Assembly (NCBI RefSeq): GCF_000219355.1
Contig: NC_015722.1
Span: 1,110,001-1,142,000, forward strand
Reading direction: 5' to 3'
Origin: Candidatus Midichloria mitochondrii IricVA
GTDB taxonomy: Bacteria > Pseudomonadota > Alphaproteobacteria > Rickettsiales > Midichloriaceae
DNA length: 32,000 nucleotides
The translations under genes and the position numbers were made by a program. The first letter of the stretch is position 1. Each line of letters opens with the position of its first letter. Of this stretch, positions 6,332-25,356 are shown in pieces. Below the pieces are notes generated by a model. That model saw only the letters and a program-made list of their open reading frames with translations. It did no database searches and was not told the DNA's origin.

Positions 6332-6855
6332 ATGAGACGGAAAATGTTTTTATTAATAGTACCAATTGTAGGACTTATAGCTATTTTCAGTTATAAAATG
6401 TATTTTTTAGATAACACTACAAGTGAAAAAGTACCCGCACTAATCAACCAGAAAGTTTCTTTAACAGAAGCTACTGACTTATTTAATGTTGAAAAAAAGT
6501 AGATTTACTACCAACAGCTGATAATAAAAAAATCATACACATTTTTACCACATGGTGCGGCTGCTGTAAGAAGGAGTTACCTGAGCTTCGGAAACTAGCA
6601 GAAAATTATAGGGTTACTGGCTTAGTTTGGACTCGAGGTGCTGAAGAAGCAAGATCTTGGCTGCAATCCAATGGAAATCATTATGAAGAAGTTGGCATAA
6701 TAAATGATAAAGAGGCAGTAAAGCTAGGTCTGTATAAATCCCCAGTTACAATTGTTTTAGATGCAGAAGGAAATGTTCAATGTGCGTTGCAGGGGCCCTT
6801 AACAGTTGAAAAATTTAATGATAATATAACTCCATGTGTTGTCGAAAAGAGGTAG
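6332..6855 (+). pseudogene. thioredoxin-fold thiol:disulfide oxidoreductase (DsbE/CcmG/TlpA-like), frameshifted as sequenced
   Basis: ATG at 6332 gives MRRKMFLLIVPIVGLIAIFSYK, a signal anchor, and reaches TAG at 6500..6502 just after an A7 run (6492..6498). The reading continues in another frame as KVDLLPTADNKKIIHIFTTWCGCCKKELPELRKLAENY...KSPVTIVLDAEGNV to TAG at 6853..6855. One additional A would join the parts into about 174 aa. Neither part appears in the ORF track. Confidence 0.7.
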
Positions 6856-6858
6856 TGA

Positions 6859-7836
6859 TTGCTCGCACTCAAGAATTTGCCCGTTGCAAATCATATAATT
6901 GAATACTGTAACCGAGTTGACTTGCTAAGAGGGGCTGAAATCAGCATAATGGGTCGGGATTGTTCCACCAAAAGTCATTATAGAGCAACATTGAAGGATG
7001 GAAGATCATACGTTATAATGGATGCTTCGGGCGATAGCGGTGTTGCTGATTCATTAGTAAGAGTTCATAATTTTATGAATCTAAATGAGTTTAGCGCTCC
7101 AAAAATCTTTGATTATAATAAGCAACAAAGTTTAGTCATTACCGAGGACTTTGGCGATAATTCTTATAAGAATATATTATTAAATGATCCAAGTCTGGAG
7201 CTACAACTTTATTACTTAGCGATCCAAGTCTTAGGTAAAATTAATTCTGTACAAATTAATATAAATCTTCCTAATCACGATGCTGATTCGTTAAATAAAG
7301 CTTTATTAAAATCGTTTTATAACTGCTATAAAACCAGAATGAAAGCAGGTAGTGAACTATTCGATGTTTTTAGTCGGCTCTTCAGTAAACTTTCAGTCAA
7401 GAATTCATTAGTGTTAAGGGATTATCATATAGATAATATGGTATTCTTAGAGGAAAGAGAGGGCTATAAAAAAGTCGGCCTAGTTGACATACAAGATGCT
7501 TCAATTGGCCACCCAGTCTATGACCTTGTTTCTCTCCTAGAAGACGCGAGAAGAGATGTATCAAGCGAAGTTGTAAAAAAATGTAAGGAGTATTTTTTAC
7601 AGTTATGTCCGACGGTAGATATAAACGAGTTTAATTATTCATATGGTGTTCTTGGACTGCAAAGAAGTCTCAGAATTTTATGGCTCTTCTCTTATTTAAA
7701 GGAGTTGCCTAGCAAGGAAAGATATGGACAATTTTTACCAAGAGTTAAAAATTATGTAAGGGATAAATTAAAAAATCCGATTTTTAAAGAAATATTAGTG
7801 TGGTCAGATAAGCATCAAATTCCTCTTCATGACTGA
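6859..7836 (+). CDS. aminoglycoside-phosphotransferase-fold sugar kinase, AmgK-like (anomeric MurNAc/GlcNAc kinase family)
   Basis: The 325-aa ORF starts with TTG. It has the kinase-like catalytic stretch LRDYHIDNMVF and the VGLVDIQDASIGHPVYDLVSLLEDARRD block characteristic of this family. It overlaps the downstream nucleotidyltransferase by 8 nt. Confidence 0.7.
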   Translation: MLALKNLPVANHIIEYCNRVDLLRGAEISIMGRDCSTKSHYRATLKDGRSYVIMDASGDSGVADSLVRVHNFMNLNEFSAPKIFDYNKQQSLVITEDFGDNSYKNILLNDPSLELQLYYLAIQVLGKINSVQININLPNHDADSLNKALLKSFYNCYKTRMKAGSELFDVFSRLFSKLSVKNSLVLRDYHIDNMVFLEEREGYKKVGLVDIQDASIGHPVYDLVSLLEDARRDVSSEVVKKCKEYFLQLCPTVDINEFNYSYGVLGLQRSLRILWLFSYLKELPSKERYGQFLPRVKNYVRDKLKNPIFKEILVWSDKHQIPLHD

Positions 7837-8566
7837 TACTATAAAAAATGCAATGATATTAGCCGCAGGTTTTGGTAAAAGGCTACAACCTATAATTGGA
7901 AATTTACCCAAGCCCTTGGTTAAAATTGCGGGTAAAACCATGTTAGAAGTTGCTATAGCGGCCTTAAACAAGCTAAAAGATATCCAAAACATTTATATCA
8001 ACGTCCATTGGCAGGCTGCTCTAATTAGAGATCACGTAAAAAATCTTGATACTGATAAAAATATTTATTTAGTTGAAGAAGAAGTAATATTAGAAACAGG
8101 CGGAGGCATTTTAAATGTCTTAAATAAAATCCCTAGCCAATATCTCTTAATAAAGAATGCTGACGTGCTACTTCTAAATAGCACTATTCTTTATGAGAAT
8201 TTAATACACGACTTTTATAAAAAGGCTCCTACTGCTCTATTAATGTTAGTCAATAAAAATGGTTTGAAAGCAACTGGTGATTTTTCATTGGCTGAAGACA
8301 ATTATATATTCAGAGGTGCTGAAAACGACTATATCTACACCGGTTGTGGAATATTATCCAAAGATTTGTTTAAAGATATAAATCAAGTCGAACCTTTCCC
8401 TTTAAGCAAGTTGCTATTTTTATCTCAGAAAGATAACTATAAGAAATATAATTACCGCGGCCTTATTCTTCCAGAAGAGGCACAATGGTTCGATATAGGT
8501 ACTCCCGAAAGCCTTAGCAAAGCTAGGTCTATAGTCTTTACCAATAGTGGCTTGACGGTAATATAA
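7829..8566 (+). CDS. sugar-1-phosphate nucleotidyltransferase, MurU-like
   Basis: The 245-aa ORF has the N-terminal NTP-transferase signature ILAAGFGKRLQPIIGNLPKPLV. Pairing with the upstream AmgK-like kinase is the usual arrangement for this two-gene pathway. Confidence 0.7.
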   Translation: MTDTIKNAMILAAGFGKRLQPIIGNLPKPLVKIAGKTMLEVAIAALNKLKDIQNIYINVHWQAALIRDHVKNLDTDKNIYLVEEEVILETGGGILNVLNKIPSQYLLIKNADVLLLNSTILYENLIHDFYKKAPTALLMLVNKNGLKATGDFSLAEDNYIFRGAENDYIYTGCGILSKDLFKDINQVEPFPLSKLLFLSQKDNYKKYNYRGLILPEEAQWFDIGTPESLSKARSIVFTNSGLTVI

Positions 8567-23606: not shown

Positions 23607-23628
23607 ATTATTATTGAAAGAAATTTTT

Positions 23629-24540
23629 ATGAACAAACATATAGTACTACTCGTGGGTGGAGTATCAAGGGAAAGAGAAGTATCTCAGATATCTGGAGAA
23701 AGCGTTCGTAATGCGTTGTTAAGTCTTGGTTATAGGGTTACTGTTGTTGATCCTAGCGAAAATTTAGCCAGTGAGCTTATCAAGCTAAGACCTGATATAG
23801 TTTTCAATTGTTTGCATGGTACATTTGGAGAAGGTGGCTCAATACCTGGCTTACTGGAATTATTACGTATACCATATACTCATTCAGGGGTTACTGCTTC
23901 TGCAATTGCCATGGATAAAATTTTAACCAAGAAAATGGCTCAGACCTGTGATATAAATACTCCTAAATATGTTAAAATTGAAAAAAGCGCTTTATTTACA
24001 ATGCTTGAAAAAGGGGAGGACCCAATGCCGAAACCTTATGTAATTAAGGCAGTGCAGCAGGGTTCTAGCATAGGTATTTACCTCGTTATAGATGAGAATA
24101 GCGATAAGCCAAAGAAAGCAGAATGGACTTTCGGAGAGCAGATACTAGTTGAGGAGTACATACCAGGGCAGGAATTAAGTGTAGCAGTACTAAATGACAA
24201 AGCACTTGGAGTGTTAGAATTAAGGCCTAAGACGAATTTCTATGATTATACTGCTAAATATAGTGATGGAGTGACAGAACACGTGCATCCAGCTGAGATC
24301 CCTCAAGAAGTCTATCTGGAGGCCATGAAAAGAGCGGAGGAGATGCATAAAGCACTTGGCTGTAGGACAGTGAGCCGCAGTGATTTTAGATATAACAATA
24401 TTGGTAGCGCAGATGGATTATTTTTCTTAGAAATAAATACCCATCCAGGTTTTACAAATCTTTCGATAGTTCCAGATATAGCCTCTCGTCGTGGAATTAG
24501 TTTTGAACAAATAATAGAACAACTTCTCAAAGACGCAAAA
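23629..24540 (+). CDS. ddl: D-alanine--D-alanine ligase; no stop codon of its own
   Basis: From ATG 23629 the sequence reads MNKHIVLLVGGVSREREVSQISG, followed by FNCLHGTFGEGGSIPGLLELLRIPYTHSGV. An ATP-grasp core (KAVQQGSSIGI, EEYIPGQELSV, FFLEINTHPGFT) is present. At 304 aa the normal Ddl end is reached, at ...EQLLKDAK, and the frame then continues into ftsQ. The upstream part of the track ORF (23551..23628) overlaps the previous gene and is unlikely to be coding. Confidence 0.9.
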
Positions 24541-25356
24541 ATGCGAAATAATGCTGTAAAAATAGCAAAATATACATATCTTGATACAGATGTTCATTAC
24601 GGTAAGCAAATAAGCTCTCTTTTGCAACCTGCTCGTGAGAAACCTTTTAAGAAAATAATTCGAGTATATATTTTGTTTTTGCTAGGTGTTGCAGCCATTT
24701 TCTATATTCTAACTAAGCTTTGTACTAACGAAGTTGATCAATTTGTTGATAAGTTAATCAACAAGACAGTGATTTCTGAGCTTAACATTTGCGGTAATAT
24801 TCAGGTGAGTAAAGAAGAAATAATCAATACTCTTGATCTCTCGTTACCACTAGAAGTCAGTTACATAAACGCCTCGCATATTAAAGAAGAGCTTTTGAAA
24901 AACCCTTTAATTAAAGATGTTGAGGTTAAAATCAATTTGCCTAACATATTAAGTTTATTAGTAACGGAGCGCCAGCCGTTTGCTCTTTGGTTTGATCAGA
25001 AACAGTTCCACTTAATAGACGAAGAAGGATTTATAGTAAAAGCCTGCGTAGAATTTCAAGAGAAGGAGAATAAATATATAATAGCTGCAGGAACCGATTC
25101 TAATAATCAGCTGCAGAATTTACTTGATGAATTAAAAGGCTATAGTATATCAAAAAAATTATTTGCGGTTCAGTTAATCAGTAACAGGAGATGGAATATA
25201 TTGCTAAAAAATGGATTAATTGTTAAGCTACCAGAAAATAACGTGAAGGAAGCGCTGGTTGCTCTAGATTTAGTTTTAGAAAATTATAGTCCAAGTAAAC
25301 CTTTCAACATCATTGATTTACGTTTAGCTCCAGGTAAGGTATATGCAGTATTTTAA
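24541..25356 (+). CDS. ftsQ: cell division protein FtsQ
   Basis: From ATG 24541 there is a short cytoplasmic tail, one TM helix (VYILFLLGVAAIFYIL) and a POTRA-like segment (ICGNIQVSKEEIINTL ... NILSLLVTERQPFALW). An FtsQ beta-domain follows (NRRWNILLKNGLIVKLP). The 271 aa is a normal size. Confidence 0.8.
   Translation: MRNNAVKIAKYTYLDTDVHYGKQISSLLQPAREKPFKKIIRVYILFLLGVAAIFYILTKLCTNEVDQFVDKLINKTVISELNICGNIQVSKEEIINTLDLSLPLEVSYINASHIKEELLKNPLIKDVEVKINLPNILSLLVTERQPFALWFDQKQFHLIDEEGFIVKACVEFQEKENKYIIAAGTDSNNQLQNLLDELKGYSISKKLFAVQLISNRRWNILLKNGLIVKLPENNVKEALVALDLVLENYSPSKPFNIIDLRLAPGKVYAVF

Follow-up and report, generated by a model that had tools for sequence, protein, structure and literature searches.

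The reference genome of Candidatus Midichloria mitochondrii IricVA (1,183,732 base pairs, bp) carries five gene-structure anomalies within a 32-kilobase (kb) window, which is the whole stretch of DNA analysed here: a dsbE/tlpA-like gene, groEL, and lpxL appear truncated, and the neighbouring pairs msbA-fabD and ddl-ftsQ appear fused. All five had been described in an original prediction and are present in the sequence at, or next to, the places where it put them. They are very probably pyrosequencing homopolymer artefacts of the IricVA reference, a 454 assembly (PMC12282096). That base-calling rather than mutation was the cause is suggested by comparison with other assemblies, and the living bacterium most likely has intact genes, like every other sequenced strain. 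The feature is not biological and holds no new biology. The privacy of the anomalies to IricVA, their mutation spectrum, and the outcome of a repair test outweigh the points on the other side.

The comparators were 11 loci from seven other M. mitochondrii assemblies, which jointly span the whole 32 kb and are 99.1%–99.97% identical to the window. The gene-restoring run length is found in every comparator that covers a given site (from two of two to eight of eight), and the IricVA length is present only in the pyrosequenced assembly, with all covering loci of the seven other assemblies carrying the other length. Each of the five aberrant products is identical to an IricVA protein in GenBank/RefSeq and occurs on one contig only, and none of them is called on any contig in a 153-billion-gene index. 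Intact products of the affected genes occur on 10–15 contigs; Logan assemblies and other Midichloria species have them too. As called in the other assemblies, they measure 174 amino acids (aa) for the dsbE-like protein, 548 aa for GroEL, 297 aa for LpxL, 597 or 592 aa for MsbA, 316 aa for FabD, 309 or 314 aa for Ddl, and 271 aa for FtsQ.

In a protein look-up, intact MetK and FtsA are encoded on 14–15 contigs; these include complete 1.19-megabase (Mb) chromosomes (GCA_963853935, GCA_963854055, GCA_963853845, and GCA_963854075) and short-contig metagenome-assembled genomes (MAGs; GCA_030068875, GCA_030068765, GCA_030068755, and GCA_030073385). The GCA_9638xxxxx records are M. mitochondrii genomes from single Ixodes ricinus ticks, assembled from Nanopore plus Illumina data (PMC12282096). 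An exact-pattern scan of genome_contigs and metagenome_contigs for the groEL site with either run length gave no match, and a scan of genome_contigs with MetK gave only relatives at about 60% identity, none of them from Midichloria, and so supplied no comparator.

The positions of the one-base differences, together with the state of each in the comparators, are collected in Table 1. In the dsbE/tlpA-like gene, the open reading frame (ORF) ends after 56 aa at the A7 run and resumes in another frame; addition of one A yields a gene at 6332–6856 encoding 174 aa. The 56-aa product is exactly WP_160162302.1 and is confined to the IricVA contig. The extra A in groEL (11195–12842) ends the frame after 385 aa and leaves a separate C-terminal piece, with the canonical C-terminal sequence resuming in the next frame, and removal of one A gives a product of 548 aa. 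In the A4 version, the alignment with solved GroEL structures, including 1iok, runs unbroken over the junction. The 385-aa form is AEI89468.1 (IricVA, one contig), and the 548-aa form is found on 15 contigs and in Logan assemblies. There is one occurrence of groEL in the window and related loci. Among M. mitochondrii genes in I. ricinus it ranks third by transcription (PMC11650858), and a null allele arising from an A5 run in the living symbiont is implausible. The lpxL frame (15968–16862) ends after 259 aa at its A7 run, and removal of one A gives 297 aa; the 259-aa product (WP_041185567.1) is limited to the IricVA contig, and the 297-aa form is present on 15 contigs. It had been anticipated that a single-A change would restore proteins of about 174, 548, and 297 aa, and the restored lengths are exactly these, with sequences equal to those of other strains.

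The two fusions likewise resolve with one base each. The prediction that all five anomalies map onto poly(A) runs applies to four of them; at msbA/fabD, the adjacent A6 has the same length in the comparators, and the lesion is an extra G beside it. Here, msbA (from 16964) reads into fabD (ATG at 18761, end at 19711) without a stop, forming a 915-aa ORF that corresponds to WP_052567741.1 and is found on the IricVA contig only. Repair had been expected from a single-A change that creates the stop ATGGATAA, which would need an added base and is the wrong direction; it is instead removal of a G that gives MsbA of 597 aa and FabD of 316 aa, and the restored msbA stop is the TAA at 18756–18758, 2 nucleotides (nt) ahead of the fabD ATG. 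In the second pair, the A5 run ends in the first base of the ftsQ ATG (24541–24543), and ddl (from 23629) reads into ftsQ (end at 25356) as a 575-aa ORF, or 601 aa when counted from an upstream TTG. The proposed stop ATGCGAAATAA would need an added A, again the wrong direction: shortening the run from A5 to A4 gives Ddl of 309 aa and FtsQ of 271 aa, with the restored ddl stop TAA at 24557–24559, 19 nt inside ftsQ.

The 575-aa product (AEI89482.1/WP_013951674.1) is again found on the IricVA contig only, and Ddl (309 or 314 aa) and FtsQ (271 aa) are separate in the other assemblies. Neither fusion recurs in relatives: the fused products are each on one contig, and all other Midichloria have separate 597/593-aa and 316-aa products, and separate 309-aa and 271-aa products. 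The natural gene pairs in Midichloria are tightly packed, with an overlap of 19 nt for ddl/ftsQ and a spacer of 2 nt for msbA/fabD, and a one-base error therefore readily makes a single ORF. The 915-aa and 575-aa ORFs, confined to one assembly, are not real multidomain proteins.

Table 1. One-base length differences between the IricVA window and the comparators
Feature	Difference in window	Position	Strand	State in comparators
dsbE/tlpA-like thioredoxin-fold gene	A7	6492–6498	+	A8 in 3/3
groEL	A5	12331–12335	+	A4 in 2/2
lpxL-type lipid A acyltransferase gene	A7	16734–16740	+	A6 in 7/7
msbA/fabD	GG, directly 5′ of A6 (18745–18750)	18743–18744	+	single G in 7/7
ddl/ftsQ	A5	24537–24541	+	A4 in 8/8
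glnA-like gene, three consecutive runs	A5, A7, A5	23468–23472, 23474–23480, 23487–23491	+	A6, A8, A6 in 8/8
Intergenic run (no gene affected)	A7	10153–10159	+	A6 in 2/2
Intergenic run	A7	3043–3049	+	A8 in the sole covering comparator (L085)

Five further private differences, beyond those of the original prediction, were found: the run at 10153–10159, the three runs at 23468–23491, and the run at 3043–3049, the last of which probably belongs to the same class. The window thus has nine private one-base length differences (ten with 3043–3049) and two private single-nucleotide polymorphisms (SNPs; 20864 and 27232); the S9 peptidase has a window-private substitution, and this version (AEI89484.1) is limited to the IricVA contig. 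In the glnA-like gene, the three-run change amounts to a net loss of 3 nt and the frame is preserved, yet GLKNKKKPIKKIY reads GLKIKKAYKKIY; the product is 272 aa versus 271 aa in the repair comparison.

For the repair test, nine single-base edits were applied to the window, and these produced ORFs of 174, 548, 297, 597, 316, 309, and 271 aa. The repaired dsbE-like protein, GroEL, LpxL, MsbA, and FabD show no amino acid differences from those of strain L001, and the additional lesions or relaxed constraint that pseudogenes might display are absent from these five proteins.

The mutation spectrum was evaluated over 4817–32000, where at least two comparators cover the window. A runs of at least four bases make up 5.2% of the bases in this region and hold eight of the nine private insertions or deletions (indels; binomial p = 5e-10). 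The eight sites have run lengths of A4–A8 in the comparators, and the remaining private indel is the change from G to GG; single-base gain or loss in an A run hence describes eight of nine differences (nine of ten with 3043–3049). Over-calls are mixed with under-calls, and three under-calls lie in consecutive runs inside 24 nt. Variation among the other strains, counted with two repeat copies and a number of mosaic patches excluded, consists of three indels, all intergenic, and 19 SNPs, and the ratio of private indels to SNPs (9:2) differs significantly from this (3:19; Fisher p = 2.5e-4). The indel-dominated spectrum on the window branch is unlike real divergence among strains, and the excess falls on coding and non-coding DNA alike, with two or three of the sites being intergenic. 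One common cause for the five sites, as had been proposed, is borne out by their privacy to IricVA, by this spectrum, and by the otherwise unchanged genes.

The IricVA reference was sequenced by 454 (PMC12282096). In pyrosequencing, a homopolymer is read as one light pulse, its length being estimated from pulse height, and a consensus built at modest coverage therefore retains +1 or −1 errors within runs. Consensus errors in 454 assemblies of Escherichia coli were one-base gaps or insertions in homopolymers; they rose exponentially with run length, 75%–90% lying at a length of at least 5, and dropped with coverage (PMC3045373). The location of the differences in A runs and the mixture of over- and under-calls are therefore consistent with this error behaviour. 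Further likenesses to 454 consensus errors are that the one-base indels sit in runs mostly of at least 5 nt, that genes and intergenic DNA are both hit, and that the differences are private to the 454 assembly in genes that are otherwise perfect. On this mechanism, the 32-kb window would contain nine (probably ten) one-base length errors, seven of them tallied inside genes: three would truncate the dsbE-like gene, groEL, and lpxL; two would remove a stop codon and create the msbA-fabD and ddl-ftsQ read-through fusions; and three neighbouring errors would cancel out in the glnA-like gene. The expectation that an artefact is favoured for groEL at least is upheld, and the evidence extends it to all five sites.

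The same pattern is visible genome-wide. When 11 new genomes were compared with the reference (CP002130.1), each showed 170–191 deletions, 92–117 insertions, and 317–625 SNPs, and the authors stated that 454 sequencing artefacts in the reference could not be excluded (PMC12282096). At a density of about 260 shared indels per 1.19 Mb, roughly six would be expected in 27 kb, and nine were observed. The roughly 260 indels that separate the reference from all new genomes suggest very many such errors across the chromosome.

Several points weigh against base-calling error as the cause. All eight run differences (nine with 3043–3049) are A on the + strand and none is T, although T runs constitute 44% of the A/T runs of at least four bases; (299/532)^8 = 0.01, a value calculated post hoc. 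Such an A-only bias (p about 0.01) is not predicted by strand-blind base-calling error and is atypical of 454 errors. Three of the nine differences also lie in short contexts (A4 to A5 twice, and G to GG once), where a well-covered 454 consensus is seldom wrong. The report on the new genomes says that the variants 'likely reflect biological differences' (PMC12282096). IricVA moreover comes from an isolate (Italy) other than those of the comparators, which leaves strain-specific mutation a small formal probability, and the cause rests on comparison rather than on IricVA raw reads or quality values.

Two causes had originally been put forward, homopolymer miscalling and slippage-tolerated lesions; the former holds at all five sites, and the latter is not supported. 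Stated in full, the slippage explanation is that genuine replication-slippage mutations occurred in IricVA and that some full-length protein is still produced because RNA polymerase or the ribosome slips at the A runs; we regard this as very unlikely. M. mitochondrii has an AT-rich genome (36%–38% GC) and is an obligate intracellular symbiont, and rescue of this type has been described for just such bacteria (PMC3017870). Every run difference is an A when read on the coding strand, and, as in the Blochmannia cases, the genes are intact apart from these lesions; single A-run indels in otherwise intact, important genes are shared with both Buchnera and Blochmannia. Poly(A) or poly(T) frameshifts of these two symbionts can be rescued by transcriptional slippage (Tamas et al. 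2008, as cited in PMC3017870). The rescued frameshifts are, however, common to populations or species (PMC3017870), whereas those of the window are unshared, being absent from all covering loci of the seven same-species assemblies and from other Midichloria species. Slippage frequency increases exponentially with run length, up to 9–11 nt (PMC5574713), and the example of a rescued tract quoted in PMC3017870 is 11 A; the runs here are 5, 5, 7, and 7 nt, short of the 9–11 nt or more of such tracts, and the msbA lesion is a G. Nor would rescue or selection be relevant to the two or three intergenic differences, intergenic runs being affected at an equal rate, and three adjacent runs differ within one gene. 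The private indel:SNP ratio, as given above, is likewise unlike real strain divergence.

More broadly, it is improbable to a high degree that IricVA truly carries these run lengths and tolerates frameshifts in groEL, lpxL, and the dsbE-like gene together with two stop-less gene pairs, all at A runs no longer than 5–7 nt. Tolerance would then come from unusually error-prone transcription or translation, or from complementation among genome copies, and slippage rescue would, if this were true, reach tracts far shorter than those described so far. One observation alone leans in this direction, the bias towards A on the coding strand. There is similarly little likelihood that the anomalies are very recent inactivating mutations, that is, pseudogenes and fusions either fixed in IricVA or forming a majority allele complemented by intact copies in a polyploid or mixed population. 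Bottlenecked endosymbionts do accumulate homopolymer frameshifts, and the glnA-like gene, a truncated relic in all strains, shows that gene erosion does occur. This explanation nevertheless requires the simultaneous loss of groEL, lpxL, the ddl/ftsQ separation, and the thiol-disulfide protein without one added substitution, even though groEL is present once in the window and related loci and is among the most expressed genes. It also leaves intergenic run differences at equal density unexplained, along with the significant private indel excess and the recurrence of that excess genome-wide against every new genome (PMC12282096). The converse arrangement, in which IricVA is right and the errors sit in the other assemblies (for example through Nanopore polishing guided by gene models), is the least probable of all, to the point of being scarcely credible. 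Several comparators are Nanopore-Illumina hybrids and Nanopore miscalls homopolymers too, but matching run lengths were obtained in assemblies of separate projects, with short-contig MAGs (GCA_0300687xx/0300688xx/030073385) and Logan assemblies of public runs among them; other Midichloria species have separate full-length genes; the comparator GroEL aligns unbroken to solved structures; and a set of errors made independently would not yield canonical proteins throughout.

Homopolymer miscalling in the reference, the favoured cause, has practical consequences. The IricVA sequence is used as the reference for M. mitochondrii (as in PMC12282096 and bioRxiv 10.1101/2022.05.16.490919), and RefSeq and UniProt both carry the proteins predicted from it. 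Seven genes are misrepresented in 32 kb, in the form of truncated GroEL, LpxL, and thiol-disulfide protein and two chimeric 'fusion' proteins, and the errors already mislead comparative work: fabD, whose product starts type II fatty-acid synthesis, has been stated to be missing from the reference. This gene (COG0331) was reported in all 11 new genomes and as absent only from the reference (PMC12282096), which is explained by the msbA-fabD read-through. The deposited truncated and fused IricVA proteins are not usable as evidence of gene decay, fusion, or metabolic gaps, and the newer assemblies are preferable when pseudogenisation, gene fusion, or metabolic gaps are to be inferred for Midichloria.

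Three other ideas were considered and rejected. An apparent sixth break in dnaK (ORF 31190–31957) is an ORF that just runs off the window end; the window is identical to comparator L086 over 30113–32000, and dnaK is intact there at 631 aa. Programmed frameshifting or read-through was discarded, with no site conserved in any relative. The seed orthologues assigned by eggNOG (supplement of PMC12282096) were not accepted as a sign that the reference lacks the affected proteins, because intact genes such as dnaK likewise match another species; the database yields no Midichloria hit even where the reference gene is whole.

The window has a GC (guanine plus cytosine) content of 34%–40%, and its genes lie mostly on the + strand. 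They comprise argS, a BON-domain gene, the dsbE/tlpA-like gene, groES-groEL, lipB, metK, lpxL, msbA, fabD, fabG, a gene for an AFG1-type ATPase, trxA, the short glnA-like gene, ddl, ftsQ, ftsA, the S9 peptidase gene, and the 3′ part of dnaK. An Rfam scan of the whole window found no RNA family. The glnA-like gene (22791–23606) encodes only 271–272 aa and covers positions 91–270 of the 344-position Gln-synt_C model. Its truncated form is the same in every M. mitochondrii assembly, and the gene appears to be a conserved relic or shortened derivative rather than an assembly error. For metK (14817–15947), the 80 best MetK relatives in a one-genome-per-species collection are about 54%–62% identical. 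The closest are mostly from Gammaproteobacteria (Thiotrichales, Francisella, Legionellaceae, and others) and the remainder from many phyla, and no Rickettsiales are among these 80. The gene could have been acquired horizontally, or else Midichloria and its close relatives could simply be absent from the searched collection.

Two copies of an approximately 820-bp element, at 13041–13894 and 21587–22404, are about 93% identical and have terminal inverted repeats of 16–23 nt (TTAAGGGGCATTGCCT ... AGGCAATGCCTTTTAA). The short ORFs of this element have no Pfam match, and it looks like a decayed insertion sequence or an element resembling a miniature inverted-repeat transposable element. Most between-strain indels in the compared loci lie within it, the others being in mosaic patches and at three intergenic sites (29927–29963). 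Dense patches of SNPs and indels, absent from the window, occur in L088 (GCA_963854075) at 22176–22395, 28400–28585, 29070–29102, and 30745–30978; the patch at 22176–22395 is present in L090 (GCA_030073385) too, and in L088 the S9 peptidase is reduced to 599 aa by one of the patches. Possible origins of these patches are exchange with paralogous repeats, by recombination or gene conversion, and mistakes in the local assembly of the two genomes. Finally, a 103-aa ORF at 28584–28895 has weak ankyrin-repeat matches under the Pfam cut-offs and is called as a gene of 88–106 aa in other strains.

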